Below, piece after piece: positions 5,584 to 48,014 of a DNA stretch of 64,000 nt. The number at the start of each line of letters is the position of its first letter. The first letter of the stretch is position 1. The position numbers were made by a program, and so were the translations under genes. Under the pieces are notes generated by a model, which had not been told where the DNA came from, did no database searches, and was given only the letters and a program-made list of their open reading frames with translations. This stretch comes from Prevotellaceae bacterium (GTDB lineage: Bacteria > Bacteroidota > Bacteroidia > Bacteroidales > Paludibacteraceae), in NCBI GenBank assembly GCA_031271005.1, contig JAISWT010000111.1, positions 3,428 through 67,427 on the forward strand, read 5' to 3'.

Positions 5584-5728
5584 TAGTTATTAGTTATTAG
5601 AGTTTAGAGTTTAGAGTTTAGAGTTTAGAGTTTAGAGTTTAGTTATTAGTAGATAAATATCAATTTATAATTTATAATTCGTAATTGCTACTTGCTATCT
5701 GCTACTTGCTATCTGCTACTTGCTAATT
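5584..5728. repeat. Tandem heptamer arrays (TAGTTAT, TAGAGTT x6, then GCTACTT/GCTATCT x6)
   Basis: Read directly. The two halves use unit types that occur in opposite orientation in the full composite cassettes. Confidence 0.85.
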
Positions 5729-8387: not shown

Positions 8388-8426
8388 TTTTTATTTATAA
8401 TTTTTCTAACCAAAAAAATATGCAAT

Positions 8427-9708: not shown

Positions 9709-11637
9709 ATGGACAAAAACACAATTCTTGCATTCGCGCTTATCGCGCTTATTTTCATCGGTTTTACGTGGTTGGGCAAGCCCTCTGAAGAGGAAATTGC
9801 ACGCACACAACAGTACAACGATTCTATCGCGTCTGTTGAGCGTCAACGCCTTGCATCACAGGAGTTTAATGAAAGTTTAACGCCTGTTGCCTCCGACACT
9901 TTGACTGCAACTTCAACAAGCACAGACAGCGCAACCCTGACTGCCAAATACAGTACATTCGGCGTGGCGGCACAAGGAACAGAAACTTTTCATACTCTTG
10001 AAAACGAATTGATTAAGGTTGTAATTTCGAGCAAAGGCGGACGTATATACAGCGCGGAACTCAAGCAATATAAAACCCACAACAAACAGCCTCTTATACT
10101 GTTCGACAATGACGAAAGCGACATGAGTTTCACGTTTGCCACAATAGACAACCGCGTAATAAACACATCTGAACTGTATTTTGACATAGTTGATGACGCA
10201 CCGGCTCCGACCGATAAAAAAGACGGTCAAAATTTGGTTATGCGTTTGAAAACCGCAACAGATGCGTTCCTCGACATTGTGTATACACTGCCGGATAACG
10301 ATTATATGCTGTCATTCGCATTGAAAGGGACCGGCTTGAATCAGATTGTATCGCCCAATACAAATACATTAGACTTGCACTGGGCAGCAAAAATTCGCCA
10401 GCAGGAACACGGCAGAACGTTTGAAAACCGCTATGCAAAACTGGAATACAAGTTTAGCGGCAGAGACGTACAGGAACTTGGCAACACCAAAAACGTGCAA
10501 AAAAACGAGTTGGCAAAAATCAAGTGGATAGCCTTCAAAGACCAGTTCTTTAGCAGCGTACTGATTGCAGACGAATGGTTCTCCGACTCCAAACTTGTAA
10601 ATAACATGGAAGACGAAACATCGCCCTATCTGAAATCTTATGATGTTACAACTTCCATACCGTTTGATATAACAGGCGCCAAGCCAACAAATTTCAGAAT
10701 GTTTCTGGGTCCCAATCAGTACAAAATCTTCAGCAAATATGACCGGGGCTTGCCCACACCTGACAAGTTGTATCTCAACCGTTTGATACCTTTGGGATGG
10801 GGATTTTTCCTGTTCCAATGGGTTAATCGCTTCTTTATTATTCCTGTTTTCAACTTTTTAAGCCAGTTTATAGGCAATTTCGGAATAATTATACTTATTT
10901 TAACATTATTAGTGAAAACTCTGCTTTTCCCGCTTACATTCAAATCATATATGTCGGGGGCTAAAATGCGCGTTCTCAAACCCGAACTTGACGAAATAAA
11001 TGCCAAAATTCCCGCCGACAAGCCACAGGAACGCCAAAAAGCAATGATGAGTTTGTACAACAAAGTGGGCGTAAGTCCAATGGGCGGCTGCCTGCCAATG
11101 CTGATACAAATGCCCGTACTGGTGGCGCTGTTCTACTTTTTCCCCGCAGCAATAGAACTCAGGCAGGAAAGTTTTTTGTGGGCAAAAGACCTCTCTTCAT
11201 ACGACTCAATTCTAACTTTGCCTTTCAGCATCCCGTTTGGATATGGAAATCACGTCAGTCTGTTCTGTCTGCTGATGACGGCAGCCACCATAATGTCGAC
11301 CAAACTGAACCAGCAGACCCAACCGATGTCTTCCAATCAGCCCGGAATGGGAATGATGAAATGGATGATGTATCTGATGCCTGTATTCTTCCTGTTTATT
11401 TTCAACGGCTACGCATCAGGATTGACATTCTATTATTTCGTTTCGACACTGATTTCGGTTATCACCATCTACATCTGTCGCGCTATGGTTGACGAGAAGA
11501 AAGTGCTGGCACAACTGCACGCAAAACGCGCTCAACGCGCCAAAAACCCGGTCGCTGCAAAAAAAATGACCTTCATGGAACGCCTCGAAGCAATGCAGAG
11601 AGAACAGATAAAAAACACGCAGAAAAAGAGAAAATAA
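9709..11637 (+). CDS. yidC: Membrane protein insertase YidC
   Basis: 642 aa. N-terminal TM segment, large periplasmic domain, and a conserved C-terminal 60 kDa insertase core (..LLVKTLLFPLT.KSY.S.AKMR.LKPE..GVSPMGGCLPMLIQMPVL.ALF). Confidence 0.92.
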   Translation: MDKNTILAFALIALIFIGFTWLGKPSEEEIARTQQYNDSIASVERQRLASQEFNESLTPVASDTLTATSTSTDSATLTAKYSTFGVAAQGTETFHTLENELIKVVISSKGGRIYSAELKQYKTHNKQPLILFDNDESDMSFTFATIDNRVINTSELYFDIVDDAPAPTDKKDGQNLVMRLKTATDAFLDIVYTLPDNDYMLSFALKGTGLNQIVSPNTNTLDLHWAAKIRQQEHGRTFENRYAKLEYKFSGRDVQELGNTKNVQKNELAKIKWIAFKDQFFSSVLIADEWFSDSKLVNNMEDETSPYLKSYDVTTSIPFDITGAKPTNFRMFLGPNQYKIFSKYDRGLPTPDKLYLNRLIPLGWGFFLFQWVNRFFIIPVFNFLSQFIGNFGIIILILTLLVKTLLFPLTFKSYMSGAKMRVLKPELDEINAKIPADKPQERQKAMMSLYNKVGVSPMGGCLPMLIQMPVLVALFYFFPAAIELRQESFLWAKDLSSYDSILTLPFSIPFGYGNHVSLFCLLMTAATIMSTKLNQQTQPMSSNQPGMGMMKWMMYLMPVFFLFIFNGYASGLTFYYFVSTLISVITIYICRAMVDEKKVLAQLHAKRAQRAKNPVAAKKMTFMERLEAMQREQIKNTQKKRK

Positions 11638-11640
11638 AGA

Positions 11641-11677
11641 AGAGTAAAGACGGATTGCGGGTTAAAATCTCTACTCT
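11641..11677 (+). terminator. Possible yidC terminator hairpin
   Basis: agagtaaaga / tctctactct stem (one mismatch), followed by the T-rich ttattcttcgtttt. Confidence 0.3.
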
Positions 11678-11692
11678 TTATTCTTCGTTTTA

Positions 11693-11765
11693 CACAAAGA
11701 GATTATAGAGTTATCTGTTAGTGGTTAGATAGCAACTAACTTGATAACTTTGTAATCTCTCTGTG
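11693..11765. repeat. Imperfect long palindrome (23-nt arms, 3 mismatches)
   Basis: cacaaagagattatagagttatc ... gataactttgtaatctctctgtg. The loop contains TTAG-type units. Confidence 0.7.
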
Positions 11766-11844
11766 TTTCTCTGTGTTTCTCTGTGAAAGAATGTATTTTT
11801 TTGTTACACAGAGTGACACAGAGGATACGCAGAGTTACACAGAG
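11757..11844. repeat. Hairpin-forming word-repeat element (CTCTGTG)n - loop - (CACAGAG)n
   Basis: Left arm ctctctgtgtttctctgtgtttctctgtg; right arm cacagagtgacacagaggatacgcagagttacacagag. Confidence 0.8.
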
Positions 11845-11870
11845 GTTCTTCGCGCCTTCGTGCTTTTTTT

Positions 11871-11878
11871 TATATTTG
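11871..11878 (+). promoter_or_regulatory. Candidate -7 promoter box (TATATTTG) facing the 21-bp array
   Basis: TAnnTTTG match in an AT-rich stretch, 49 bp before the first 21-bp unit. No ORF follows. Confidence 0.3.
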
Positions 11879-11926
11879 TAAGAAAAATTTTAAAAATACT
11901 TTAAATTTAATATAAATGCACGTCAT

Positions 11927-12121
11927 TTGATATTAAATTTGGCGGTCTTGATATTGAATTCGCCAATCTTGATATTGAATTTGCCTTTTTTAATATTAAA
12001 TTTGCCAATCTTGATATTAAATTCGCCAGTCTTGATATTAAATTTGGCAATCTCGATATCAAATTCGCCAATCTTGATATTGAATTCGGCAATCTCGATA
12101 TTAAATTCGCCACATTTGATT
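11927..12121. repeat. 21-bp tandem repeat, 9 full units plus a partial one (iteron-like)
   Basis: Units TTGATATTRAATTYGSCAATC sit exactly at 11927, 11948, 11969, 11990, 12011, 12032, 12053, 12074 and 12095. Each unit contains ATTG-N7-CAAT half sites. Confidence 0.95.
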
Positions 12122-12280
12122 AAAGGAGGCTGTGTCGCGCAAAACAACTAAATTTATTGTCCTTTGTGCAACCTCCCACTTTGGCGGGAGAAAAAATATC
12201 AAATAATTAACAATTAATGATAGAAATGGTATTATTTAAAAATGGAGTAAAAGAATTAGCAATTCTCAATTCTCAATTAA

Positions 12281-12321
12281 CCACCTCACCCCCCAGCCCC
12301 CTCTCCAAAAGAGAGGGGGAG
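12281..12321. repeat. REP-like element, copy a
   Basis: ccacctcaccccccagccccctctccaaaagagagggggag is the exact reverse complement of 12489-12529. Confidence 0.9.
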
Positions 12322-12414
12322 AAGGGCGCAAAATTGTGGGAGCGCATATATGGGCAAAAGAAATGAAGGAATTAATTATTATTGATAGAACATAGAACAT
12401 AGACAAAAGACGTT

Positions 12415-12443
12415 GTAGAGACGCCCAATTTGGGCGTCTCTAC
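12415..12443. repeat. GTAG...CTAC hairpin (REP-like)
   Basis: gtagagacgccc aattt gggcgtctctac, a perfect 12-14 bp stem. Confidence 0.85.
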
Positions 12444-12488
12444 TACTGACCACTAACAATTAACCAGTAACATCAGCCGTACGCCCTA

Positions 12489-12529
12489 CTCCCCCTCTCT
12501 TTTGGAGAGGGGGCTGGGGGGTGAGGTGG
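12489..12529. repeat. REP-like element, copy a' (inverted)
   Basis: ctccccctctcttttggagagggggctggggggtgaggtgg, a perfect 41-nt reverse complement of 12281-12321. Confidence 0.9.
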
Positions 12530-12667
12530 AGAGTGTCGAAGTCAGGTGAAAACGGCTGCGCAGGGAAAAAAATTAACTGCAGAAATCAGCCCTAATTTTT
12601 TTGAGCAAAAAAATGTTTAGCGGACAGGAAAAATCGAAAATGGGGAAATGATATTGAATTGGCGTCC

Positions 12668-12695
12668 GTAGGGGCGAAAAATTTTTCGCCCCTAC
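12668..12695. repeat. GTAG...CTAC perfect palindrome (REP-like)
   Basis: gtaggggcgaaaaa/tttttcgcccctac, a 28-bp perfect palindrome. Confidence 0.9.
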
Positions 12696-12838
12696 TTACA
12701 ACGGCTCTTTTTTTGTCCCCGCTATCCATCACGCGCAAGCCTTCGCGCCCTGAAAGTCCAAAATCAAATGACCGACAGGGCGTTGACGCAACAATGATTA
12801 CGCCCCGTTGGGGCTTGTGTATTATTCGCGTTCTGTTC

Positions 12839-12857
12839 CGTAGGACGTTGTCCTACG
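12839..12857. repeat. Short GTAG...CTAC hairpin
   Basis: cgtaggac gtt gtcctacg. Neighbouring mini-hairpins are gcccc gtt ggggc and cggct ttc agccg. Confidence 0.7.
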
Positions 12858-13029
12858 CTATTGATTGTACGGCTTTCAGCCGTTTGCCCTGCCGAATAAT
12901 TAGCAGTTAGCAATTCTCAATTCTCAATTAAAAAAAAACAGTCCGCCTTTTATAGACGAACTGTTTTTCTTTTGAGAATTATTGCAGTTTTTATTCTGCT
13001 ACTTGCTAATTACTAATTGCCGCAAACGC

Positions 13030-15921
13030 TTAATCCTGCGAATGGTCGCGGTTATGAGCGGCATATTCTATTGCCCAAGCCAGATAGTTGCAGAACAGAT
13101 ATGAGTTATACACATTGCCTGCGCTAGTTGTCGGGTGACCGCCAGTGCCGCTAAAGTTTTTGGCGCGCGGCTTATAATCCGAAGTGGTAACAAGCGGGTA
13201 TGTAACTGTGGAAGTATTATCCCACGTGTTACTTGCCAGCCATCCTCCATCTCCGCAATAGAGCAATCCTTTTGTAGGATCGAAGAACATAAATACACCG
13301 CCATTGCTGCGCGTTGCCATCACCACTCCATTTGGCGCTGCGGCAGCAAGCGCGGCGGGACTCGTAATATAACTGCCCGTGCCATTATCGTTACCAACTG
13401 CCGTAATATCTACACCCTGACTGAATGGACCGTTGAGTATAGGATTGTTTTCGTAGTCGGCAGTACCCGGCGTCTGCAGAATGCCAAACTTGTAACGTCC
13501 GCCTTCATACGCCGCAGTGAGATTGCTTACGCCATATATTGTATTCATTATGCCTTCTATGTAAGAACCGGGCGTTTCGCATGAATACATCAACGCGCCG
13601 CCTCTTTGCAGGAACTCGGCAAGCACCTTAGCGCGGTTATTGCCGGGATTTCCGAATCCATTTACATATTGAATCAACACAATGTCTGCATCTCTGATAG
13701 CAGTATTCAGTTCCGCCTCTGTGTCAACATCCGTAGCGCTGGTAATGCGCGTTAAAGTAACGCCGCCTACAGGCACTGTGCCGTTGTAACCAAAGTTCAC
13801 ATCGGAGCCAAGCAGCGAATATCCTACAGAATTTGGATTATTCAGCGAAAAGTCGGCGCTGCCTAAGGATACTATCTTCATTGCACGGTAGCCAAACCAT
13901 AATGGTACCTCTATCGTTCCTGTCATTATGCCCGAAGATGGATCATCGGCAGATGTATAATAATAAATAACATCAGTGTATTTGCCCGGCGTTACCGTAA
14001 TAGGCAATGGATTTCCGGTTCTTGTATTCCAAACATACTGGGCAGGGTCTGTGGTTTTGTTTCCGCCTGCATCCACAAAGTCTCCGTCTTCGTCTATCTT
14101 AAACGGTGCAAGTGTAATTGTGGCAGCGCCAAGAGTATGTCCGCCCGGCAGCGGTGGCAATTCTCCTTTTGCCACATAGACAATTGTATCTGCTCCTTCG
14201 CCAAATTTCACGCGGAAATTATAGTCGCCCGGTATCGAGTAACTTGTCGTCAGGTTTATGCCTGATACAGGCGTATTGCCTGCCGCATCAATGGTATAGA
14301 CGCCCTGAGTTGCTGCGTTCATACTTGCAGTAGTATAATTACCTGCTATGGCAGTGTTGTACAGGTATCTCATTCCGTTAGCATGAGCGTTTATTCCTGA
14401 TGTTGGCGCCTGCTGTGCCAGTGTGATGTCTGCAAAACGCGCCACCGAAGGTTTAACCACTATTGCCGGTCGGCAGAACAGGTCTTCGGTATAATACCCG
14501 CTTTCACTTGACCAGTCATCTGCGTTGCCTGCTATTCCGTCCGGTCCGTCGGCATCGCCCGCACTGAACATGAGTTCTATAGGCGTATCGTACACAGTAG
14601 TATTCGTCTTTCTGTTCGCATTTGAAGCGTCTTTTGCTCCCACAGGATAAAGCGTCAGCGTATTGGTAGTGGATAGCAGCGTAACTTGGCTTGCGGTATA
14701 ACTCGTTCCGTTGTCTGTACAGGTAGCAAACTGCACGCCTGCAAAGTTAGCATACACTATATATTGTCCGGGCGCAGTTACCTCAATCGGTATTTTGATA
14801 TACGCATCGCTAACAAACTCCTCGCCGTTGCGCACGGTATCGGTATCAAACAGCGCACTAACCAAAGACAGATGTATAATCAAATTCGGGTCGGAGCATT
14901 GTACGCGGTTGAGTTTGAAGCCGCCCTTGCTCAGTTGAATATTGAACTCATAGTTACTTGCGGTTTTGCTTGTAGTTGTACTCATCAAAAAGTGGTCGCT
15001 GCCTGTGCCATACACATTAGCCTGTCCGGCAGCCACAGGTACAAGCACAGTAACTGTTTGCGGGAAACTGCCTGCGGGGTTGTAGCCCTGCGCATTGGCA
15101 GTTTCGCCTGTTGCGGCAAACGAGTATCCGTTCACTTCCGAAGTGGTAAGCCCCCAGGTACCCGGATTGTATACCAGCAGTTTAACCATCACTTTTTTTG
15201 TTCCGTCATCAAGCGGAGTAAGGATATTCCATTTCGGGTCCATCTGTTCCACGCTCAGAATAATATAGTCGGGGTCTCGCGGCAGCACGGTAATCGGAAT
15301 ATCGCAGGTTTGCAATACGCCGTTCATAGTAACATTTGCCGTATGGTTGCCTGACGTTGCCGGAAAGCCTGCTCCCGGCACAATAACATCAAAATAACCA
15401 GCCTTGGGAAAAATGCCTTTTGTGCTGAAATAATAGGTTTCACTGTTATTGCCGGCATCTTTCACGGCTGCCTCAATGCTGTAAGTACCGGGCTGGCTCA
15501 CATTTACAGGTATCCTCAAATAGTTGTTCACCGTCAGTGGCTCGTCAATAAGGTATGTTCCTATTGCTTGTGCATTGCTACAGTCGGCAAGTTCAAACAC
15601 TGCCGGTGGCGGCGTTCCGCAAAGATTCCACCAGCGTGCATCAGAGAGGTTATAGTATCTGAAGCAACTGCTGATGGTATCGTAGAACATCAGCCCGTCG
15701 TTATTAACGCCAACCATACTGTCAGGTTTTACTGCCACCACATCCTCAATAGTGATATTGCTTTCATTGGATTCCGGAAATTTTACTCCCTGAATTTCTC
15801 CTTCTTTTGATTTTATCTCAAGTACGGCATTGGGGCGTGGATTATCAGTATTAATACCCACCTGTGCATTCGCTGACACTGCCGTCAATGCTATTGCTAT
15901 ATACATTATTATTTTTTTCAT
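13030..15921 (-). CDS. Large secreted repeat-module protein of uncharacterised family (paralog A)
   Basis: 963 aa. Signal peptide MKKIIMYIAIALTAVSANA/QV, head motif VGINTDNPRPNAVLEI..DGLMFYDT..CFRYYN..W.NLCGTPPPAV, several Cys-bounded beta-rich modules (..VNVSQPGTYSIEA..YYFSTKGIFP..), and a conserved C-terminal ~250 aa domain. Clear paralog of 16123-18603. Confidence 0.85.
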   Translation of the reverse strand: MKKIIMYIAIALTAVSANAQVGINTDNPRPNAVLEIKSKEGEIQGVKFPESNESNITIEDVVAVKPDSMVGVNNDGLMFYDTISSCFRYYNLSDARWWNLCGTPPPAVFELADCSNAQAIGTYLIDEPLTVNNYLRIPVNVSQPGTYSIEAAVKDAGNNSETYYFSTKGIFPKAGYFDVIVPGAGFPATSGNHTANVTMNGVLQTCDIPITVLPRDPDYIILSVEQMDPKWNILTPLDDGTKKVMVKLLVYNPGTWGLTTSEVNGYSFAATGETANAQGYNPAGSFPQTVTVLVPVAAGQANVYGTGSDHFLMSTTTSKTASNYEFNIQLSKGGFKLNRVQCSDPNLIIHLSLVSALFDTDTVRNGEEFVSDAYIKIPIEVTAPGQYIVYANFAGVQFATCTDNGTSYTASQVTLLSTTNTLTLYPVGAKDASNANRKTNTTVYDTPIELMFSAGDADGPDGIAGNADDWSSESGYYTEDLFCRPAIVVKPSVARFADITLAQQAPTSGINAHANGMRYLYNTAIAGNYTTASMNAATQGVYTIDAAGNTPVSGINLTTSYSIPGDYNFRVKFGEGADTIVYVAKGELPPLPGGHTLGAATITLAPFKIDEDGDFVDAGGNKTTDPAQYVWNTRTGNPLPITVTPGKYTDVIYYYTSADDPSSGIMTGTIEVPLWFGYRAMKIVSLGSADFSLNNPNSVGYSLLGSDVNFGYNGTVPVGGVTLTRITSATDVDTEAELNTAIRDADIVLIQYVNGFGNPGNNRAKVLAEFLQRGGALMYSCETPGSYIEGIMNTIYGVSNLTAAYEGGRYKFGILQTPGTADYENNPILNGPFSQGVDITAVGNDNGTGSYITSPAALAAAAPNGVVMATRSNGGVFMFFDPTKGLLYCGDGGWLASNTWDNTSTVTYPLVTTSDYKPRAKNFSGTGGHPTTSAGNVYNSYLFCNYLAWAIEYAAHNRDHSQD

Positions 15922-16122
15922 TATTATTTTTTATAAAATTAATAAATAGGCTTCGTTTTAAGCCTTTCCCAAAAGGAAAGTTAAATTGTAATTATCTCAT
16001 TTGCGCGATGCTGTTTTAGCATCGGCAATATGCGCTAACTCTGCACGCACAAATTTTCGTACAATTTTTACAGTCTGTTCTGTTCCTTTTCAGGAATGGC
16101 TTAATAACAAAGTTGTTTTCCT

Positions 16123-18603
16123 TTACGGAATAATAGCGCTTGTGTTACAGTTTGCAGCCGCCCAGTCTATCGCCCATGCCAGCGCGTTTCCAAAGAGGAA
16201 ACTGTTTTGTACCATATTGCCGCCACTGTAAGGTTTCTCTTTCGGCGTATTGTCCGAATTAATCTGCAAGGGGTAAATCGTTGTACTGCTTACAGAGGCT
16301 GTAGGGTGTCCTGCCAGCCAGCCCGAATCGCAAATATACAGGAAGCCTTTGGTTTCATGGCGGAACGCCCATACGTTGCCTGTCGACTGCACTTTTATCA
16401 ACGATTTTAATGGCGCAGACACGGTTGGCTGTTGAACAGGCATCGCATTCGCCACGTCATTGCCTATGGCTTTCCCTCGCAAATCCCCAAACTTACCGTT
16501 AGTAACGGGGTCGTCTATACTTTCCACAGTATTAATATATGAGTTGCCGCCGCCGCCTAAACCAAGAGGCAGCGTGACGCCGCAAATTTTGTTTATCAGG
16601 TCTTGTGCATAATTCGGATATAATTCCGAAGAGAAAATCAACGCGCCGCCTTTATTATTTACAAAATTTGCAAGAATTTGGCGGTCGCCTTCCTGATTTG
16701 GCTGATAGTTGTATCCCACAACGATAATATCAATTTTATTGTTATTTATAAGATTTCTCAGGGTGCTTGTACTGGGCGTTGTGCCTCCGTTGAATGCTTT
16801 GAGCGACTGTACGCCAACTGTTCCGTTAGGACCAAAGTTGTTTGCCGAACTCCACAGTTTGCGTGCATTATAAGTAGCGCTGTAACCGCTGTACGGGTCG
16901 CCGCCAAGGAACAGAATGTTCATTGAACGCTGTACAAAATATACCGTTTGCGAGTTGGTTACAGATGAACCGCTTGGACCTGTGTATGAAAGGGACACAG
17001 ATTTAGGACCCGAACTTGCAGGACGATTGGTTGCAGGGTCAACAGGTTTCAATGTTATGGTAGAATTTCCTGCATTAACATTGCCCTGACCTGACCACGT
17101 AACGCCATTTACGGTTGTCGTAAGGTTGTATTCGCCTGCCATATCCACCTGAACGGAAAGCACCATATCGCAAGGCGCATCTACGCCGCCCGGAAAAGGA
17201 TTCATAATATACTGATTCTGATTGGAGAATGTAGTAATAGAAATGTTGCGGAACGATGCTGTTGCAGGGGCAACGGTAACCAACTTCGGATAGGCGCACT
17301 TTTCGTAACCACCTTTGGAACTGGCAATATTAATGGGAAATTCACCCGCCTGATTCGGCTTCTGACCAAGCGTTACCGGATAGAGCGTAACAGTGTTGGG
17401 ACCGCTATTAAGCGTTACTTCGCCCGGCGAGCCTGCCGCGCCTGTAGAGAACGATAGTCCTGCAAAGTTTGCAGTAATCTGCGTTGTGCCGCCTGTAGAA
17501 GCAGTTACAGGAAGCGTAATTACAGAACCGTCCGGAATAGCCACGCCCTGCTTTAGCGTTCCGAAATTACCCAGTGTAATAGCCTGACAATCTATGCTAA
17601 AAGCAACTTCTGCCAGCGTAATGGTCAGCGGATAAACGGTGTTACAGAGGTTCGCGCCCACCGAAGTAACCTGAAAGGTGTTAGTATGCGGGCTGTTACT
17701 GGTCGCCTTTTTGCCTGCCACTACAGGAATATTTACCATAACCGTTTGCGGAAAATTGCCGTTAGGGTTATAGCCCGATGCCTGTGAGAGTTGTCCTGTG
17801 CCGCTAAAATCATATCCGTTTATTTCGGAAGTGGTAATAGTATACGGACCCGGTTTATTAACCTGCAATGTAACTTCGGCATAATAGTTAGGATTAAACT
17901 CCTGATTTATGGGCCATGGCGTAGATGGAATTTGCTTTGCTCCGATAATACAGAAATCGGGCGTGCCTTCCTTAATCTCAAGCGGGAAGTCGCAAGTCTG
18001 TTCCATTCCGTTAAACACAAATTTGATTATGTTTGTACCCGCAACATCGGGCATTCCTGCGCCCTGAATATTTACCGTATATGTTCCCGTGCGCGGAAAA
18101 GTGCCATTGGTTGAGAAATAATAGCCGTTGCCATTATTTTCGCTTGTTGAAGCGGTAATGCTGTACGTGCCGGGCGAGGTAACATCAATTTTGACCTGTA
18201 AATAGTTGTTTATACCAAATACTTGATCTTCGATATACACGCCAACGGCGGTAATACTGGTACATTCTATTGTTCCCACAGCGGGAGGCGGCGTTCCGCA
18301 AAGCGAGTACCAACTGGAGGAAGATACCTTGTAATAGTTGAAACAGCCTGTCTGCATATTATACAGCGTTAACCCGTCCGCATCAAAGGGGTCGCCAAGA
18401 GCGTCTAAACCATTTAATACTACGTCGCCAAGCGACACGTCTGACGGCGCTTGAGGAAGAATAACGCCTTTATCGGAGTTCGGGGCTGTTATATGCAATG
18501 CGGAATTGGGACTTGGAACTTCGGTGTTAATGGCTACCTGAGCATTAACGTTACAAATACTGAAAAGAATTATTATTATGGATAAGATTTTTTTTGTTTT
18601 CAT
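16123..18603 (-). CDS. Large secreted repeat-module protein of uncharacterised family (paralog B)
   Basis: 826 aa. Signal peptide ..CNVNA/QV, head VAINTEVPSPNSALHI..DGLTLYNM..CFNYYK..WYSLCGTPPPAV, modules ..IDVTSPGTYSITA..YYFSTNGTFP.. and EINGYDFSGTG..GYNPNGNFPQTV. C-terminus GGALIFSSE..GFLYICDSGWLAG..FLFGNALAWAIDWAA matches paralog A. Confidence 0.85.
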   Translation of the reverse strand: MKTKKILSIIIILFSICNVNAQVAINTEVPSPNSALHITAPNSDKGVILPQAPSDVSLGDVVLNGLDALGDPFDADGLTLYNMQTGCFNYYKVSSSSWYSLCGTPPPAVGTIECTSITAVGVYIEDQVFGINNYLQVKIDVTSPGTYSITASTSENNGNGYYFSTNGTFPRTGTYTVNIQGAGMPDVAGTNIIKFVFNGMEQTCDFPLEIKEGTPDFCIIGAKQIPSTPWPINQEFNPNYYAEVTLQVNKPGPYTITTSEINGYDFSGTGQLSQASGYNPNGNFPQTVMVNIPVVAGKKATSNSPHTNTFQVTSVGANLCNTVYPLTITLAEVAFSIDCQAITLGNFGTLKQGVAIPDGSVITLPVTASTGGTTQITANFAGLSFSTGAAGSPGEVTLNSGPNTVTLYPVTLGQKPNQAGEFPINIASSKGGYEKCAYPKLVTVAPATASFRNISITTFSNQNQYIMNPFPGGVDAPCDMVLSVQVDMAGEYNLTTTVNGVTWSGQGNVNAGNSTITLKPVDPATNRPASSGPKSVSLSYTGPSGSSVTNSQTVYFVQRSMNILFLGGDPYSGYSATYNARKLWSSANNFGPNGTVGVQSLKAFNGGTTPSTSTLRNLINNNKIDIIVVGYNYQPNQEGDRQILANFVNNKGGALIFSSELYPNYAQDLINKICGVTLPLGLGGGGNSYINTVESIDDPVTNGKFGDLRGKAIGNDVANAMPVQQPTVSAPLKSLIKVQSTGNVWAFRHETKGFLYICDSGWLAGHPTASVSSTTIYPLQINSDNTPKEKPYSGGNMVQNSFLFGNALAWAIDWAAANCNTSAIIP

Positions 18604-19063: not shown

Positions 19064-19684
19064 TTATGACTGTAAAATTACGGAACGTGGTGCAGGAGGC
19101 GGTAAATTACCCTGTGCAGAAGCAGTAGCATTGTTGTTAGAAAAGAAAAGGTAGTAATTTTTAGATAAGCGCTTTATGGGGATATATAAAGCATTAAAAC
19201 AGATATTGTTTTTATTTTTTATTATGTGTTTTTGCAGTTTCTTATTGCTGCTGTTTTGCGGAGGCAATATGCCTGTAATGTGAACTGTGCCGCCGCTTAA
19301 AGTCGCATTGTTAAAAGGCAAAAACAGATTGCAAACAACTTCTTTGTGTATCTTTTCGGCTTTTGCATCAGCCTCTGATTTCTGTTTGCGTGCATGGTCG
19401 TAAATTTTTGACTGAACGCCAGACAATGCCCTATGCTGTTCAATAACAAAGCGAATAGTTTTGTCTTTTCCTGCCGACAACTGTTGATTGTTGAAAATCT
19501 GCGCGTCTTTGCTGATAAAAACGGTAATGCTGTTTTCTCCGCTATCGTTATTTTCGATTTGCGCGAAAATATGAGCGAAACAAACCTGCAAAATACTCAC
19601 AACCGAAAGCAGTACAAAAAATTTGCACTGTATTACCAAATTTAAAAATTTTCTAAATATGTGAAACGGTTTTCTTTCGTTCAT
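19064..19684 (-). CDS. Small membrane-anchored/secreted protein of unknown function (paralog 1)
   Basis: 206 aa from the ATG at 19684 (the track ORF starts earlier at a TTG). Basic N-terminus, hydrophobic segment KFFVLLSVVSILQVCFA, and conserved blocks DAQIFNNQQL and NLFLPFNNA..ILPPQNSSNKKLQKHIIKNKNNICF..YLFFSNNN..QGNLPPP shared with 21209-21847. Confidence 0.7.
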   Translation of the reverse strand: MNERKPFHIFRKFLNLVIQCKFFVLLSVVSILQVCFAHIFAQIENNDSGENSITVFISKDAQIFNNQQLSAGKDKTIRFVIEQHRALSGVQSKIYDHARKQKSEADAKAEKIHKEVVCNLFLPFNNATLSGGTVHITGILPPQNSSNKKLQKHIIKNKNNICFNALYIPIKRLSKNYYLFFSNNNATASAQGNLPPPAPRSVILQS

Positions 19685-19779
19685 ATAAGTATTGTATGCG
19701 TATTCAACTGCTAACTCAACTGTTTTTTTTAACAAAAAAATATGCGAAAAACGTAATTAACAAGGTTTTATACAAATAC

Positions 19780-19882
19780 TGTTAGTAGTTGTTAGTTGTT
19801 AGTTGCTAATTGCTAATTACTAATTGCTAATTGCTACTTGCTACTTGCTAATTGCTAATTGCCACTTGCTAATTGCTAATTG
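19780..19882. repeat. Tandem heptamer arrays (GTTAGTT, then TTGCTAA/TTGCTAC x ~11)
   Basis: Read directly from the sequence. Confidence 0.85.
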
Positions 19883-19919
19883 TTTTCTGGGATGAGGGGT
19901 GAGGTATAAACATAAAATT

Positions 19920-21208: not shown

Positions 21209-21847
21209 TCAAACGCGGTTTCCCAGTTTAATCACAAAGTTCACAGAGGTATCCGGGGGAGGTAAATTGCCTTGCGAATATGCAAGACCGTTGTCGTTAG
21301 AAAAGAAGAGATAAGTGTTTTTGGAAAGATACTTTGTTGGGATAGACAAAGTACTGAAGCAAATATTGTTTCTATTTTTGATTGCGTGTTTTTGCAGTTT
21401 TTTATTGCTGTTGTTTTGCTGTGGCAATATGGCTGCGTAACCTGTGCTGCTGCCAACGAAAACAGCATTGTCGAAAGGTAAAAACAAGTTGTAAGAACTT
21501 TCTTTGCAAGTCTTTTTTATTTTCGCATCGGTTTGCAGGTTCTGTTCATCGCATTTGCTTTGCACGTTTCTGTGAGTTCGCGAGCGCGGTTGTGCTTTGG
21601 ATTCATAAACAATGTGTACACTCCCGCCTCCGCCTGTCAGCAACTGCTGATTGTTGAAAATCTGCGCGTTTTTGCCAACATAAACGGTAACTTCATCCTC
21701 GCTTACACTCGCATCGTTTGTTTGCGCAGCAACGGAAGCAAAACAGCCTTGCACTATACTCACAACAAAGAACAGTACAAAGTATTTACTCCGTATCTTC
21801 AAATTGAAAATTTTTCCAAATATGTAAAACAGTCTGTTGCCGGTCAT
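21209..21847 (-). CDS. Small membrane-anchored/secreted protein of unknown function (paralog 2)
   Basis: 212 aa. The N-terminus MTGNRLFYIFGKIFNLKIRSKYFVLFFVVSIVQGCFA and blocks NAQIFNNQQL and NLFLPFDNA..ILPQQNNSNKKLQKHAIKNRNNICF..YLFFSNDN..QGNLPPP align with 19064-19684. Confidence 0.7.
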   Translation of the reverse strand: MTGNRLFYIFGKIFNLKIRSKYFVLFFVVSIVQGCFASVAAQTNDASVSEDEVTVYVGKNAQIFNNQQLLTGGGGSVHIVYESKAQPRSRTHRNVQSKCDEQNLQTDAKIKKTCKESSYNLFLPFDNAVFVGSSTGYAAILPQQNNSNKKLQKHAIKNRNNICFSTLSIPTKYLSKNTYLFFSNDNGLAYSQGNLPPPDTSVNFVIKLGNRV

Positions 21848-24243: not shown

Positions 24244-24251
24244 TAATTTTG
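24244..24251 (+). promoter_or_regulatory. Candidate -7 promoter box (TAATTTTG)
   Basis: TAnnTTTG match 19 bp before the ATG at 24270, implying a near-leaderless mRNA. Confidence 0.5.
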
Positions 24252-24269
24252 CGCAAATTTTTATCATAT

Positions 24270-24815
24270 ATGAATAAAACATCTTACGAATTTGACGAGG
24301 TAATAAAAACTTGCCGCTCTGTTTTTGAGAAAAAACTGGTTGATTATGGGACTTCGTGGCGCATCATGCGTCCGCAATCGGTTACCGACCAGATATTTAT
24401 CAAGGCGAGCCGCATTCGCAGCATCCAAACAAAAGGCATGCAGCGCGTTGCCGAAGATATTAGAGCCGAACTGATTGCCATTGTGAATTACGGAATTATA
24501 GGGCTTATACAACTTGAATGCGGATTTGCAGACACAGCAAAGGATATGAGCAGCGCCCGCGCTTTGACCTTATATAATAAGTACGCCGAGGCAGCGAAAA
24601 AACTTATGCTTGATAAAAACCACGACTACGACGAGGCATGGCGGCTAATGAGAATTGAATCGTACATTGATGTGATTTTAATGAAAATTAACCGTACAAA
24701 AGAAATAGAAAGCAACGCCGGACAAACGCTGGTGTCCGAAGGAATTGACGCTAATTATTACGATATGATAAATTATGCAGTATTTGCACTGATAAGAAGC
24801 GATATTAGTGGTTAG
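24270..24815 (+). CDS. DUF1599 domain protein
   Basis: 181 aa from the ATG at 24270 (the track ORF begins at an upstream TTG). YGTSWRIMRP.S.TDQIFIKA.RIRSIQ and NHDYDEAWR.MR resemble the Bacteroidota DUF1599 family. The TAG stop lies in the first TAGTGGT repeat unit. Confidence 0.7.
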   Translation: MNKTSYEFDEVIKTCRSVFEKKLVDYGTSWRIMRPQSVTDQIFIKASRIRSIQTKGMQRVAEDIRAELIAIVNYGIIGLIQLECGFADTAKDMSSARALTLYNKYAEAAKKLMLDKNHDYDEAWRLMRIESYIDVILMKINRTKEIESNAGQTLVSEGIDANYYDMINYAVFALIRSDISG

Positions 24816-25121
24816 TGGTTAGTGGTTAGTGGTTAGTGGTTAGTGGTTAGTGGTTAATTAAGAAATGAAGAAATGAAGAAATGAAGAAATGAAGAAATGA
24901 AGAAATGAAGAAATGATGAAATTGAGAATTGAGAATTGAGAATTATATTCAATTACGAATTAAAAATTACGAATTACGATTTGCTAATTGCTAATTGCTA
25001 ATTGCTAATTGATTAAAGTTTCTAACTATACCTAACTAAACTCTAAACTCTAAACTCTAATAACTGCTATCTGCTATCTGCTATCTGCTATCTGCTATCT
25101 GCTAATTGCTAATTATTAATT
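24806..25121 (+). repeat. Composite short-tandem-repeat cassette, full copy 1
   Basis: Ordered modules: (TAGTGGT)x7, (AAGAAATG)x7, (GAGAATT)x3, CGAATTA-like bits, (TTGCTAA)x4, CTAAC-rich linker, (AAACTCT)x3, (CTGCTAT)x5, (TTGCTAA)x2. The cassette fills the whole DUF1599-ABC spacer. Confidence 0.95.
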
Positions 25122-25126
25122 GATGT

Positions 25127-26017
25127 ATGATGATTTTTGCAAAGAACATATCAAAGGTTTATCGCCAAAAGTTTCGGGAAATCAGCGCGTTAGAAAATGT
25201 TTCGCTGGAAATTCGGAAGGGCGAACTTTTCGGGCTTGTCGGTCCTGACGGCGCAGGCAAGACTTCGCTTTTCCGTATTCTTACCACGCTGATACAGCCC
25301 GACGGGGGCGTGGCTACGGTTTGCGGCTTCGATGTGATGAAAGATTTGGCGGAAATAAGACGCCGCATTGGATATATGCCGGGGCGGTTTTCGCTGTATC
25401 AGGATTTGAGCGTGGAGGAAAATCTGAATTTCTTTGCCGACATTTTCGGTACAACCGTAGAGGCAAACTACGATGTTATCCGCGATATTTATGTGCAGAT
25501 TGAGCCGTTCAAGACGCGGCGCGCGGGCAAGCTGTCGGGCGGAATGAAGCAAAAACTCGCGCTGTGCTGCGCCCTTGTGCATAAACCCGAAGCGCTGTTC
25601 CTCGACGAGCCTACAACAGGAGTAGACCCCGTGAGCCGCAAAGAATTTTGGGCAATACTAAGGAAACTGATTGACGCAGGAATTACAATTATGGTAAGTA
25701 CGCCATATATGGACGAAGCAAGTCTGTGTCAGCGAATTGCATTGATTCAAAATGGGAAAATATTGTCCGTCGACACACCGCAAAATATTGTAAATCAGAA
25801 TAATAATACAATATTTGAAATACGGTCGCCCAACAATTACGCACTACAGCAATCATTGAGAGAGCGTGCAGATGTTGCTTCGTGCTACATGTTTGGCGAC
25901 ACTCTGCATCTGGTTTTTCAAAATAATATTTTACCCGATAACTTGCCACAAGACATTGATATTCGGAGAATAATGCCTGCTATAGAGGATTGCTTTATTG
26001 AATTAATGAAACAATAG
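25127..26017 (+). CDS. ABC transporter ATP-binding protein (ABC-2 type)
   Basis: 296 aa. Walker A GPDGAGKTS, signature LSGGMKQK, Walker B LFLDEPTTGVD. No permease gene is adjacent. Confidence 0.9.
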   Translation: MMIFAKNISKVYRQKFREISALENVSLEIRKGELFGLVGPDGAGKTSLFRILTTLIQPDGGVATVCGFDVMKDLAEIRRRIGYMPGRFSLYQDLSVEENLNFFADIFGTTVEANYDVIRDIYVQIEPFKTRRAGKLSGGMKQKLALCCALVHKPEALFLDEPTTGVDPVSRKEFWAILRKLIDAGITIMVSTPYMDEASLCQRIALIQNGKILSVDTPQNIVNQNNNTIFEIRSPNNYALQQSLRERADVASCYMFGDTLHLVFQNNILPDNLPQDIDIRRIMPAIEDCFIELMKQ

Positions 26018-26022: not shown

Positions 26023-26066
26023 GTTAGCAATTAGCAATTAGCAAGTAGCAATTAGCAATTAGCATT
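26023..26066. repeat. Tandem heptamer array (TTAGCAA x6)
   Basis: gttagcaattagcaattagcaagtagcaattagcaattagca, starting 6 bp after the ABC gene stop. Confidence 0.85.
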
Positions 26067-30033: not shown

Positions 30034-30054
30034 ATGACCTGCCCTGTGTTATTC

Positions 30055-30110
30055 ACTAACCACTAACCACTAACCACTAACCACTAATAACTGACCACTA
30101 ATAACTAAGC
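30055..30110. repeat. Tandem heptamer array (CTAACCA x4, then CTAATAA variants)
   Basis: Reverse orientation of the TAGTGGT unit. Confidence 0.85.
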
Positions 30111-37107: not shown

Positions 37108-37194
37108 GTTAATTTATGGTAACCCTTGTTCAGTTATGTTGATAAGCAAGGGCGGGGCTTTTATAGTTTTTTGTTAAAAAAAATTTTATTAAAA

Positions 37195-38736
37195 ATGAAG
37201 ATTAAAAATCAATTTATTTTATTTTTATTAGTAATAATTTCTTTTTCGTGTAAAAATGGCATAAAAAACGCAAATTATTTTGATTATTTATATAAAGATT
37301 TGCCGTTTGAAATGCCGAGGCTGACAAAGCCGACTTTCCCTGCCAAGACGGTTTCTATTGTTGATTTTGGGGGCGTGGGTAATGGCATAACGCTCAATAC
37401 CGATGCTTTTGCCAAAGCAATGGACGCCCTGTCGGCACAAGGCGGCGGAACGTTGCGCGTACCGTCGGGAGTGTGGTATACGGGTCCTGTTATTTTCAAA
37501 TCGAATATAAATTTGCATATAGAAAAAGGCGCGCTGATACTGTTCTCGCCCGATTTTTCGCTCTATCCGCTTGTAGAGACAGTGTTTGAAGGGCTTGACA
37601 CCCGCCGCTGCCAGTCGCCAATTTCGGGGAAAAACCTCGAAAACATTGCGATTACGGGCGAAGGCGCAATTGACGGTTCGGGTGAATTTTGGCGACCTCT
37701 CAAAAGAGACAAGGTTACCGAAAGTCAGTGGAAGGCAATTGTTTCCACAGGCGGCGTTATTAAAGACGGCACAACCTGGTACCCGTCCGAAGGCTCAATG
37801 AAAGGCGCGGCAATTGCTGATATGAACGTGCCGCGAGGCGACTATTCACCCGAACAATGGCTCGAAATAAAAGACTTTTTGCGTCCGGTGATGATTAGTT
37901 TTATGGAATGTAAAAACGTGCTGATTGAAGATATTTTAGTGGAAAACACTCCATGCTGGGCTATTCATCCTTTAATGTGCGAAAACGTGATTATTGATGG
38001 CGTTATGGTTCGCAATCCCGCCTACGCGCAAAACGGAGACGGTATAGACTTGGAGTCGTGCAAAAATTCCATCATTATCAATTGTGTTCTCGACGTGGGC
38101 GATGATGCAATTTGCATCAAATCGGGCAAGGACGCAGACGGACGTAAACGCGCCCGCCCCACCGAAAACCTGATTGTGGACAACTGCAAAGTGTTCAACG
38201 GTCATGGCGGCTTTGTAGTGGGCAGCGAAATGAGCGGCGGCGTGCGCAATATTTCTGTATCCAACTGCGTATTTATGGGTACGGATGTGGGTTTGCGCTT
38301 TAAAAGCAAGCGCGGACGCGGCGGAGTTGTCGAAAATATTTACGCCAGCAATATAAATATGTTCAATATTGCCACCGAACCATTCCTGTTCGACCTTTAC
38401 TACGGCGGCAAATCGGCTGTAGAAGCCCTGTCGGATACTGTCAGCACACCAAAAACAGACAAAATTCCTGCCGCTGACGAAACAACGCCCGCTTTCCGTA
38501 ATATCAACGTCAAAAATCTCACGGCACGCAACGCACGCAGAGCAATGTTTTTCAACGGCTTGCCCGAAATGCCTATCGACAGCATCAATGTGGAAAACGC
38601 ATTTATTACAGCAACCTACGGAGCAACGCTGTCGGAATGTAAAAACATTGTGTTTAAAAATATTGTAATAAAACAGAAAGAAGGCGAAGCATTCAATCTG
38701 AACAATGTGGAAAATATTCAAACAATTAGCAATTAG
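37195..38736 (+). CDS. Glycoside hydrolase family 28 (polygalacturonase-like)
   Basis: 513 aa from the ATG at 37195. GH28 catalytic blocks NGDGIDLESC, GDDAICIKSG, NGHGGFVVGSE and LRFKSKRGRGG. The TAG stop is inside a TTAGCAA repeat. Confidence 0.9.
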   Translation: MKIKNQFILFLLVIISFSCKNGIKNANYFDYLYKDLPFEMPRLTKPTFPAKTVSIVDFGGVGNGITLNTDAFAKAMDALSAQGGGTLRVPSGVWYTGPVIFKSNINLHIEKGALILFSPDFSLYPLVETVFEGLDTRRCQSPISGKNLENIAITGEGAIDGSGEFWRPLKRDKVTESQWKAIVSTGGVIKDGTTWYPSEGSMKGAAIADMNVPRGDYSPEQWLEIKDFLRPVMISFMECKNVLIEDILVENTPCWAIHPLMCENVIIDGVMVRNPAYAQNGDGIDLESCKNSIIINCVLDVGDDAICIKSGKDADGRKRARPTENLIVDNCKVFNGHGGFVVGSEMSGGVRNISVSNCVFMGTDVGLRFKSKRGRGGVVENIYASNINMFNIATEPFLFDLYYGGKSAVEALSDTVSTPKTDKIPAADETTPAFRNINVKNLTARNARRAMFFNGLPEMPIDSINVENAFITATYGATLSECKNIVFKNIVIKQKEGEAFNLNNVENIQTISN

Positions 38737-38958
38737 CAGATAGCAGATATTAGAGTTTAGAGTTTAGAGTTTAGTTAGGAATTGTTAGGAATTGTTAGGA
38801 ATTGTTAGGAATAGTTAGATGTTGTTTTAATTCTCAATTCTCAATTCTTAATTCTCAATTCTTAATTCTCAATTCTTAATTCTCAATTCTTAATTTCTTA
38901 ATTTCTTAATTTCTTAATTTCTTAATTAACTATTAATCACTAATCACTAATCACTAAT
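38726..38958 (-). repeat. Composite short-tandem-repeat cassette, full copy 2 (inverted)
   Basis: The reverse complement reads (AGTGATT)x3, (TTAAGAAA)x4, (AAGAATT/GAGAATT)x9, aaaacaacatctaactatt, (CCTAACAATT)x3, (AAACTCT)x3, CTGCTAT, TTGCTAA. This is the same order and the same junctions as copies 1 and 3. Confidence 0.95.
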
Positions 38959-40282: not shown

Positions 40283-40359
40283 TTAGTGGTTAGTGGTTAA
40301 TTGTTAGTGGTTAGTGGTTAATTGCTATCTGCTATCTGCTAATTGCTAATTGCTAATTG
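40283..40359. repeat. Tandem heptamer arrays (TAGTGGT, CTGCTAT, TTGCTAA); truncated cassette
   Basis: attagtggttagtggttaattgttagtggttagtggttaattgctatctgctatctgctaattgctaattgctaattg. Confidence 0.85.
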
Positions 40360-40546
40360 AAATTCTTTTTTTGGAAAAAATTATGTCTATTTCGCACATA
40401 TTTTTAAAATGCAATTTATAAAAGTATTTTTTTAAAATATTAATAAAAATTAAGGTAAATAAATAATAATTTAAAAGAAATAATTTTATCAAACAATCAA
40501 ATATAGTTTTTTTGCCTGAAATAAAAGTTATTTTAATCATTTTGTC

Positions 40547-48008: not shown

Positions 48009-48014
48009 TTTTCT

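Follow-up and report, generated by a model that had tools for sequence, protein, structure and literature searches.

Sources on the short tandemly repeated repetitive (STRR) sequences of cyanobacteria, the heptamers of Calothrix and Nostoc, and on long simple sequence repeats (SSRs) are said to be Mazel 1990 and Mrazek 2007. Intergenic heptanucleotide arrays have been described in cyanobacteria, in Xanthomonas (GGGAATC) and, as TAACTGA, in Beggiatoaceae and Bacteroidetes, and heptamers are the most overrepresented class of long SSRs, with slippage proposed as the cause (PMC4692102, PMC4679880). In Gramella and Aequorivita, one spacer can hold several different heptamers (PMC4679880). The authors of a 2015 study could find no detailed literature about heptanucleotide arrays (PMC4692102). 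BrickBuilt, a MITE (miniature inverted-repeat transposable element) found in Porphyromonas gingivalis, is built around tandem repeats (PMC4596501). Here we analyze a 64-kb stretch of DNA from an uncultured, gut-type Bacteroidales bacterium (the window), in which positions 24806 to 25121 hold an ordered series of short tandem repeats, called a cassette below, that recurs in other spacers. We propose, with a probability of about 55%, that this region is one copy of a lineage-specific, noncoding mosaic heptanucleotide satellite of the STRR or long-SSR kind, which diversified in place and was then block copied.

The window is part of a 69,795-bp contig of a metagenome-assembled genome (MAG) labeled "Prevotellaceae bacterium" by NCBI (MDR1653160.1, MDR1653161.1, MDR1653170.1). 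Two conserved window proteins have named relatives that are Paludibacteraceae-like and at most about 80% identical, and the window genes fall with Paludibacteraceae-like MAGs. Exact look-ups of window proteins gave no record, and a second assembly of this species did not turn up: the window proteins that were looked up cluster at 90% identity only with sequences of the same contig. The evidence below comes from 64 kb of this one short-read MAG contig and from one 3.8-kb metagenome contig (L081).

Results

Three full cassettes share their unit order and junctions

Arrays were detected by sequence reading and with Tandem Repeats Finder (TRF), and both confirmed, at the coordinates given, all arrays that an initial annotation of the window had listed. 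Of the intergenic arrays reported by TRF, 27 have period 7, 7 have period 10, and 1 has period 8; 18 perfect arrays in the window have at least three units. We labeled the units A (TTAGTGG), B (an 8-mer), C (GAGAATT/TTAAGAA type), D (AATTACG), E (TTGCTAA), F (..yCTAAC, 10 nt), G (CTAAACT), J (CTAATAA type), and H (CTGCTAT). The cassette at 24806 to 25121 (copy 1) had been said to recur in the same order at two other places, and both copies were found, copy 2 on the reverse strand and copy 3 on the forward strand (Table 1). Copies 2 and 3 have the common order A-B-C-F-G-J-H-E with the same short sequences between sub-arrays, and copy 1 carries an extra D-E insert at the place of AAACAA in these two. 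With the tandem units collapsed, the skeletons of all three full copies can be aligned by eye over their entire length.

The junctions between sub-arrays also recur. The patterns GAGAATTRAAACAANAYCTAAC, TAGTGRTTAATTAAGAAAT, and CTCTAATAWCTGCTAWYTGCTA each occur three times in the window, against 0.00 to 0.03 expected from dinucleotide-preserving shuffles of it, which agrees with the near-identical junctions reported in the initial annotation; the letters it gave for one junction were wrong, since copy 1 reads aactctaatAActgcta and not ...tatctgcta. In a test in which orientation-aware module adjacencies were permuted, 20 shared adjacencies were observed against 4.1 ± 1.7 expected, and 0 of 20,000 permutations reached 20. 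Order, junctions, and permutations together uphold the view that the arrays are not independent microsatellites. In the short or rearranged versions, agreement with the full cassette was seen for 7 of 18 adjacencies, with 1.2 expected. Because just 7 of 18 match, module order is a strong tendency and no strict grammar: the description of the repeats as an ordered composite holds for the three full copies and fails for most of the short versions.

The full copies measure 230 to 316 bp and are joined by at least three partial copies. Full and partial copies are found in both orientations and in co-directional, divergent, and convergent spacers, as had been noted. Shared order, shared junction units, and the occurrence in either orientation support the conclusion that at least three full and three partial copies descend from one composite sequence.

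The unit types are sub-arrays of one drifting heptamer array

The unit types had been treated as separate modules, a view that their register contradicts. When the right half of every copy is cut each 7 nt from the first CTAAACT, it reads in unbroken register as CTAAACT, CTAATAT, CTGCTAT, CTGCTAA, TTGCTAA (from G through J and H to E). Successive units of this half are 0 to 3 substitutions apart, and neighboring units elsewhere also differ by 1-nt indels; the 8-mer B (TTAAGAAA), for example, is the 7-mer C (TTAAGAA) plus one A. Identity at lag 7 over whole cassettes is 0.59 to 0.69, against about 0.3 at other lags, and the 8- and 10-nt sub-arrays are embedded in the heptamer series. What had been called modules are sub-arrays of one in-register, nearly continuous degenerate array of about 7 nt. 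Because neighboring units differ by few changes, it is most likely that the composite diversified in place and was not put together from separate modules.

The copies differ chiefly in unit number and in copy-specific unit variants, as expected from the slippage of internal units proposed in the initial annotation. Homogenized variants specific to a copy include TGAAGAAA versus TTAAGAAA, TTCCTAAC versus TTTCTAAC, and TTAGTGG versus TTAGTGA. Variants are also shared in a reticulate manner: CTAATAT is common to copies 2 and 3, and copy 2 shares with the array at 55073 the GAGAATTAAAACAA junction and the 14-nt TTAAGAA/TTGAGAA alternation of C. Homogenized variants combined with drift are the usual signature of a satellite that diversifies in place by mutation and slippage.

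Shorter arrays are partial, rearranged or of a single type

There are 13 array sites in the window, the number given before, although as a count of spacers it is 12, the arrays at 61582 and 61717 lying in one spacer. Three short arrays keep collinear parts of the series, namely, those at 55073 (C-F-G-J), 40283 (A-H-E), and 802 (H-E); the array at 40283 to 40362 (A-TTAATTG-H-E) is a collinear deletion derivative of the full cassette. About seven further arrays are single-type or rearranged, and further short heptamer tracts lie in the noncoding region 11638 to 13029.

Arrays are intergenic and cluster after stop codons

No array of period 7, 8, or 10 lies inside a coding region of the window, whereas 12 to 13 spacers carry them. 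The arrays have no coding potential, all six frames being closed with at most 33 codons open. They total 1,616 bp at 28% G+C, in a window of 35 to 47% G+C in 2-kb steps (mostly about 42%). Copy 1 occupies its entire spacer, reaching from the DUF1599 stop codon to a point 5 nt short of the ABC ATPase start codon (ATG). More generally, the distance to a stop codon is between -14 and +12 nt for 9 of the 13 arrays, and in several cases this codon falls within the first unit. The 1,616 bp of arrays contain no TAnnTTTG, the -7 promoter motif of Bacteroidetes, which other intergenic DNA has at 3.55 per kb, and the promoter-like motifs to the right of copies 2 and 3 sit between cassette and start codon. 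A scan for sigma-70 promoters and terminators around copy 1 gave no more sites than shuffles did. From their positions after stop codons, with promoter-like motifs outside the cassettes, we infer that the arrays occupy the least harmful parts of spacers.

No array matched Rfam 15 at gathering score. The sole match in the window was a tRNA-Gly (CCC) at 55304 to 55377, which lies 151 nt downstream of the partial cassette at 55073 to 55152.

The ends are inverted and pair weakly

The left units are of the TTAG/TTAA/TTGA type and the right units of the CTAA type; the two cassette halves are therefore mutually inverted. The outer ends are alike in five arrays, with TTAGTGR... on the left and ...GCTAATTG on the right. 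Unit A (TTAGTGG) and reversed E (TTAGCAA) are three transitions apart, so that in RNA of the canonical strand they pair fully via G.U, while as DNA the end arrays match at 13 of 21 positions. True inverted A arrays are present at 61717 to 61838 only. Three of the 13 arrays fold significantly as RNA (Table 1); in the hairpin formed by forward-strand RNA of the 40283 array, A pairs with H/E through G.U, and a T-run follows. RNA structure was rejected as a general property of the arrays, copies 2 and 3 and the 5584 array not folding significantly, and so was cruciform or hairpin DNA (single-stranded DNA folds with z of -0.6 to -1.9, not significant). The foldback character is real yet weak, and it is absent from some copies.

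Target-site duplications, which the initial annotation suggested looking for at the cassette ends, were not found consistently at the flanks of copies 1 to 3 and of the 40283 array, where GAA or TGAA occurs occasionally. No sharp conserved termini were found for the cassettes.

Relatives are nearly free of arrays

The closest sequences found, with glutamine synthetase III 86 to 89% identical (L090, the sibling MAG contig L091, and L092; 36 kb), have essentially no such arrays. Gene order is not conserved in these relatives near glutamine synthetase III, nor near carboxynorspermidine synthase in relatives at 86% identity. Perfect arrays of at least three units are missing from 74 of 82 related loci (80 genome loci, L081, and L082). 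Two-unit tandems of cassette units number 72 in the 64-kb window versus 5 in 92 other Bacteroidales loci totaling 1.45 Mb, and nhmmer searches with the three full copies found nothing in that 1.45 Mb. None of 185,579 species-representative genomes has the 23-nt F-G junction, and viral contigs gave no match to it or to one other pattern.

Two JGI (Joint Genome Institute) metagenome contigs match the 23-nt junction. One, L082, was rejected as a relative of the cassette for its unrelated repeat context. The other, L081 (Ga0082212_10065783), carries a porP-porK-porL operon whose PorK is 81 to 83% identical to that of Tannerella-like MAGs; its tetranucleotide correlation with the window is 0.74, the window's own range being 0.73 to 0.97. 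The porK-porL spacer of L081 consists of 113 bp of (AGTTTTC)n-F-G-J, against only 15 to 16 bp in its relatives L088 and L089 (87 to 89% identity). All three have a two- to three-unit TTAGAGT-type tract directly after porL. Since this tract is kept while the porK-porL spacer is short in the relatives, short gene-end tracts appear to be old and long arrays to be recent, lineage-specific expansions or insertions; the comparison shows that old short tracts can plausibly act as seeds for expansion. Every spacer of the L081 operon has 7- to 8-nt arrays (966 to 1047, 2485 to 2597, and 3633 to 3663), which consist of four TTCAATTA units, of reversed G/J with nine AAACTGA units, and of two TATTAGAGTTTAGT units.

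A Paludibacteraceae MAG, RGIG4115 (L001), has many intergenic heptamer arrays of unrelated units (TCCCTAT, CATTCCT, and 31 CCCTATT), located at 395 to 436, 7429 to 7514, 8304 to 8444, 9940 to 9990, and 16879 to 17097, mostly with one unit type per spacer. Because this MAG is rich in arrays of unrelated units, heptamer bursts seem to recur independently in Bacteroidales.

Table 1. Positions of the cassettes, their sub-arrays and flanking genes, the shorter arrays, and the RNA folds
Feature	Positions	Strand	Remarks
Full cassette, copy 1	24806-25121	+	316 bases, nearly all short tandem units; between DUF1599 and ABC ATPase genes
Copy 1, sub-array A	24805-24856	+	TTAGTGG; TRF (TTAGTGG)7.4
Copy 1, sub-array B	24856-24922	+	8-mer, TRF (AATGAAGA)8.4
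Copy 1, sub-array C	24920-24944	+	GAGAATT; TRF (AATTGAG)3.6
Copy 1, sub-array D	24951-24979	+	TRF (AATTACG)~4
Copy 1, sub-array E	24981-25011	+	TRF (TTGCTAA)4.4
Copy 1, sub-array F	25019-25036	+	Two 10-nt ..yCTAAC units, tttctaactatacctaac
Copy 1, sub-array G	25036-25060	+	TRF (CTAAACT)3.6
Copy 1, sub-arrays J/H	25057-25104	+	CTAATAA, CTGCTAT; TRF (CTGCTAT)5.9 at 25064-25104
Copy 1, terminal sub-array E	25099-25121	+	TTGCTAA x2
Full cassette, copy 2	38723-38958	-	A3-B4-C9-AAAACAA-F4-G3-J-H-E2; C9 is a 14-nt TTAAGAA/TTGAGAA alternation; overlaps stop codon of polygalacturonase-like gene 37126-38736
Full cassette, copy 3	60562-60797	+	A1-B4-C2-GAAACAA-F6-G6-J-(E/H)7; divergent spacer
Flanking gene, DUF1599 family	24249-24815	+	Stop codon 24813-24815 lies in second heptamer of A array
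Flanking gene, ABC transporter ATP-binding protein (MDR1653160.1)	25127-26017	+	ATG at 25127, 5 nt past cassette
Partial copy, C4-AAAACAA-F1-G2-(CTAATAA)2	55073-55152	+	Overlaps stop codon of gene 53583-55085
Internally deleted copy, A2-TTAATTG-A2-TTAATTG-H2-E3	40283-40362	+	12 nt past stop codon of Lnb gene
3' part alone, H-E-E-H	802-857	-	Overlaps stop codon of gene 84-806
Rearranged: C6, reversed E-type units, (GAAAACT)3	4201-4298	-	Overlaps stop codon of gene 4286-5560
Rearranged: reversed E/H 14-mer array, D-type units, G6, (CTAATAA)2	5584-5728	-	
Mostly single-type: (GTTAGTT)3, then 11-unit E-type array (TTGCTAA/TTGCTAC)	19780-19885	+	
E-only array, 6 units	26023-26066	-	5 nt past stop codon of ABC ATPase gene
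A-only array, TTAGTGG x4 and variants	30054-30110	-	136 nt upstream of SusC gene
A passing into reversed G: TTAGTGG, TTAGTGG, TTAGTGT, TTAGAGT, TTAGAGT	61582-61622	+	Single register; 6 nt past stop codon
Foldback version, N/A-E-F2-reversed C-reversed A	61717-61838	.	Inverted A arrays at ends; convergent spacer, 1 nt from stop codon
RNA fold, copy 1		canonical (+)	z -3.7, stem from end arrays
RNA fold, copy 1		opposite	z -0.6
RNA fold, internally deleted copy	40283-40362	+	z -4.7
RNA fold, internally deleted copy	40283-40362	opposite	z -0.8
RNA fold, foldback version (true inverted A arrays)	61717-61838	+	z -4.2
RNA fold, foldback version	61717-61838	opposite	z -3.7
RNA fold, copy 2		canonical	z -1.4, not significant
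RNA fold, copy 3		canonical (+)	z -0.5, not significant
RNA fold, rearranged array	5584-5728	-	z +1.8, not significant

Genomic setting and other repeats of the window

The window is chromosomal Bacteroidales DNA rich in housekeeping genes. Its genes include SusC/SusD, PorG, Lnb, GldH, YidC, a MurF-Alr fusion, and glutamine synthetase III, as well as ExbBD/TonB, Ham1, ApbE, carboxynorspermidine synthase, and capsule genes. None of the 41 open reading frames (ORFs) of the window encodes a transposase, integrase, or reverse transcriptase.

A 651-bp segment within 12256 to 12931 lies between perfect 25-nt direct repeats, TTAGCAATTCTCAATTCTCAATTAA (12256 to 12280 and 12907 to 12931), which are themselves heptamer-array sequence (reversed E and two reversed C units); inside it are G+C-rich 48-nt inverted repeats, 98% complementary (12281 to 12328 and 12482 to 12529), and several G+C-rich hairpins. 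The segment resembles a duplication of a heptamer array or an insertion into one. In a 1.4-kb gene-free region, a 21-bp tandem repeat, iteron-like in look (TTGATATTAAATTCGCCAATC, 9.2 units, 11927 to 12120), is preceded by 10-bp TCTCTGTGTT repeats and inverted ACACAGAG copies (11758 to 11845). G+C-rich hairpin motifs with GTAGGGGC adjoin heptamer arrays (858 to 897 and 12660 to 12700) and number 3 in the window versus 0.5 expected; similar G+C-rich sequences with GTAGGGGC or GTAGGGAC occur in spacers of L081 and L086.

Elsewhere, 89-nt inverted repeats, 99% complementary (47056 to 47144 and 49442 to 49530), bracket a 2.3-kb segment with a Ham1-family gene, a 53-bp tandem repeat of 4.2 units (47784 to 48006; each unit made of two small stem-loops), and, on the opposite strand, an ATPase_2/AAA gene; the repeat recurs as a 72% copy at 49549 to 49654. 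The stretch 47056 to 49654 could be an invertible or inserted segment. Two paralogous reverse-strand ORFs without a Pfam match (19064 to 19735 and 21209 to 21847) share about 75% DNA identity over 181 and 89 nt, and the 1.47-kb gene-free stretch between them starts with the E-type array at 19780 to 19885. Two large adjoining reverse-strand ORFs at 13030 to 18603 (963 and 826 amino acids) have no Pfam match at an E value of ≤1e-5.

Discussion

Comparison with described repeat systems

The arrays of the window have the defining features of the general long-SSR class. Like STRRs and other long SSRs (5- to 11-nt, mostly 7-nt, units), they are head-to-tail heptamers found almost only between genes at many loci, with a sporadic, lineage-specific distribution, unit numbers that vary by locus, and the possibility of several heptamers per spacer. 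They are not STRRs in the strict sense, in that the host is a member of the Bacteroidales (SusC/D, PorG, Lnb) and not a heterocystous cyanobacterium and the units are not STRR1 to STRR3. They also depart from the long-SSR examples in their AT-rich TTAG/CTAA units, which are neither G-rich nor TAACTGA, in their embedded 8- and 10-nt sub-arrays and, above all, in that an ordered series of 8 to 10 unit types recurs with its junctions at several loci and in both orientations.

Repetitive extragenic palindromic (REP) units are 20- to 40-nt imperfect palindromes in alternating orientation that are moved by REP-associated tyrosine transposases (RAYTs). They and the bacterial interspersed mosaic elements (BIMEs) of enterobacteria were reportedly described by Gilson, Bachellier, and colleagues. 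The cassettes resemble REP/BIME sequences as extragenic mosaics with a preferred motif order, many copies, and variable motif number, often past stop codons or in operons and in either orientation, and REP elements and many MITEs likewise occupy the least harmful parts of spacers. The cassette units, however, are 7 to 10 nt long, nonpalindromic, and arranged head to tail; with no 20- to 40-nt palindromic unit present, REP/BIME identity was rejected, and the ordered mosaic next to stop codons is a resemblance only. Drosophila foldback (FB) transposons have long inverted arms that consist of short tandem repeats with a unit that varies along their length, and they are eukaryotic, kilobase-sized, and well paired. 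Cassette arms, in contrast, pair weakly, DNA folds being not significant and RNA folds needing G.U. Two further candidates were rejected: contingency SSRs for phase variation, as the arrays lie past the stop codons of housekeeping genes, outside reading frames and without TAnnTTTG, and a clustered regularly interspaced short palindromic repeat (CRISPR) array, as the units are contiguous and have no spacers.

The cassettes share with MITEs the trait of being small and noncoding with multiple dispersed copies. Like BrickBuilt, they belong to a Bacteroidales host, are dispersed, intergenic, noncoding, and a few hundred base pairs long, and consist of spacerless tandem repeats with end segments of inverted-repeat character, a variable unit number, and a species-restricted distribution (PMC4596501). 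BrickBuilt has one 23-nt unit, a unique leader and tail, small terminal inverted repeats, and promoter elements (PMC4596501), whereas the cassette has only 7-, 8-, and 10-nt units of many types, no unique leader or tail, no -7 motif, no clear terminal inverted repeats, and no target-site duplication that we could find. The initial annotation knew of no described bacterial element with this architecture. Because heptamer arrays and multi-heptamer spacers (PMC4679880, PMC4692102) and a repeat-bearing Porphyromonas MITE (PMC4596501) have been described, it is less unprecedented than that. What appears to be new is that an entire ordered series of unit types is dispersed together with its junctions and in both orientations.

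Origin and dispersal of the series

We favor the view that the cassette is a mosaic satellite which would have arisen once, through units that underwent a point mutation or a 1-nt indel and were then amplified by slippage, and would afterwards have been block copied into other spacers. The copying most likely took the route of ectopic recombination or gene conversion, for which short TTAG-type heptamer tracts, common at gene ends, would have been the anchors. Each copy would later have changed locally by slipped-strand mispairing and template switching, through expansion, contraction, internal loss (40283), or inversion of parts (61717). Persistence could follow from harmless position, after stop codons and upstream of promoters, with no function needed; transcribed copies would give the mRNA a long stem. 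Block copying is evident in the common junction units. Its mechanism we infer: recombination is favored because the ends are ragged, no target-site duplication was found, variants are reticulate, the end arrays (A and E types) also occur solo, and no transposase is nearby. The annotation's proposal that the cassette spreads as a unit was an extrapolation, with no consistent target-site duplication, sharp termini, or transposase found and most short versions off order.

Several points weigh against a satellite copied by recombination. A spacer without prior similarity cannot be seeded by homologous recombination alone. The cassette ends are inverted heptamer arrays and so resemble the terminal inverted repeats of a mobile element. 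With the closest relatives essentially array-free, the arrays have a burst-like appearance. L081 shares an identical 29-nt junction, CCTAACTAAACTCTAAACTCTAATAACTA, with the window (55114 to 55142); because the one has a Tannerella-like PorK and the other is Paludibacteraceae-like, horizontal spread is hinted at. Finally, the view is limited to 64 kb of one short-read MAG.

These points lead to the main rival to recombination, and a serious one even if we hold it to be unlikely: that the cassette is a nonautonomous MITE- or foldback-like mobile element with heptamer arrays as inverted ends, served by a transposase encoded elsewhere and passing between Bacteroidales lineages. The burst-like presence, with neither the closest relatives nor the 1.45 Mb of other Bacteroidales loci having such arrays, is in its favor, as is the 29-nt junction, which L081, probably of another lineage, carries in a spacer of 15 to 16 bp in its relatives. 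So are the outer ends conserved in five arrays, ends that pair as RNA (z of -3.7 in copy 1, -4.7 at 40283, and about -4 on both strands at 61717), the acceptance of any spacer type in either orientation, and the precedent of BrickBuilt, a MITE bearing a minisatellite (PMC4596501). Yet the ends match at only 13 of 21 DNA positions and need G.U, single-stranded DNA folds are not significant, target-site duplication is inconsistent, copy 3 has a single A unit left, the short versions are mostly single-type or rearranged instead of being defined by their ends, and there is no transposase within 64 kb. Wide mobility should, moreover, have shown in the 185,579 species-representative genomes and the viral contigs, from which the 23-nt junction is missing. 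Doubtful to a greater degree is the bolder version, in which the cassette would be a new kind of bacterial mobile DNA, foldback-like, made of repeats only without a unique core, invading stop-codon spacers, and moved horizontally between Paludibacteraceae-like and Tannerella-like lineages; if true, such an element would explain sudden lineage-specific bursts.

That the arrays are functional cis-elements is improbable. They might be tandem binding sites for proteins (nucleoid-associated or OB-fold proteins of the Csp/S1 type) or RNA structures with a role in terminating or insulating transcription or in tuning expression between cistrons. Copy 1, which fills the entire spacer before the ABC ATPase ATG, must be co-transcribed or carry a promoter, the L081 arrays lie within the porP-porK-porL operon, the 40283 hairpin stands 12 nt past a stop codon and before a T-run on the sense strand only, and the 61717 foldback lies between convergent genes; TAACTGA heptamers have been suggested to be regulatory or binding sites, and CspB is reported to bind heptamer repeats (PMC4679880). 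Set against these individual cases are a unit number and content that vary freely among copies and neighbors that are unrelated housekeeping genes. Function as a general property is unsupported, because orientation to neighboring genes is inconsistent (copy 2 is antisense to both neighbors), significant folds are limited to 3 of 13 arrays, and relatives get by with no arrays; a dedicated function is possible for individual copies.

An assembly artifact, in which collapsed or chimeric low-complexity paths of a short-read metagenome assembly gave rise to the shared order, is very unlikely. Unit numbers of tandem arrays are error-prone in short-read assemblies, and the source is a single MAG contig without a second same-species assembly, its looked-up proteins being singletons at 90% identity. 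The longest exact stretch common to any two arrays, however, is 51 nt, and most are 30 to 41 nt, below usual reads and final k-mers; all sub-arrays are shorter than 70 bp with distinctive junctions between them; the contig crosses 12 such spacers amid intact, correctly framed housekeeping genes; and the independent contig L081 has similar arrays and one identical junction. It is on the short common stretches, the 12 spacers crossed between intact genes, and the agreement of an independent metagenome that we discount an artifact. The notion that independent microsatellites reached the same order at each locus by biased mutation, without copying between loci, is already close to refuted. All units do belong to one loose TTAG/CTAA-type family with mutationally close neighbors, so some parallel recurrence is possible, but identical nonrepeated junction units (TTAATTAA, AAAACAA-yA-yCTAAC, and CTAATAW) recur, no permutation reached the observed number of shared adjacencies, and the closest relatives are essentially array-free.

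Significance

In practical terms, spacers of this kind break or confuse gene callers and the assembly of short reads; in the present case, stop and start codons are found within the arrays or directly beside them. A recognizable unit series copied to many spacers is a built-in marker, by which the birth of an array can be told apart from its dispersal and the rate of slippage determined for each copy. If the dispersal proves to be by transposition or horizontal transfer, the cassette would be a repeat-only mobile element of a kind undescribed in bacteria.

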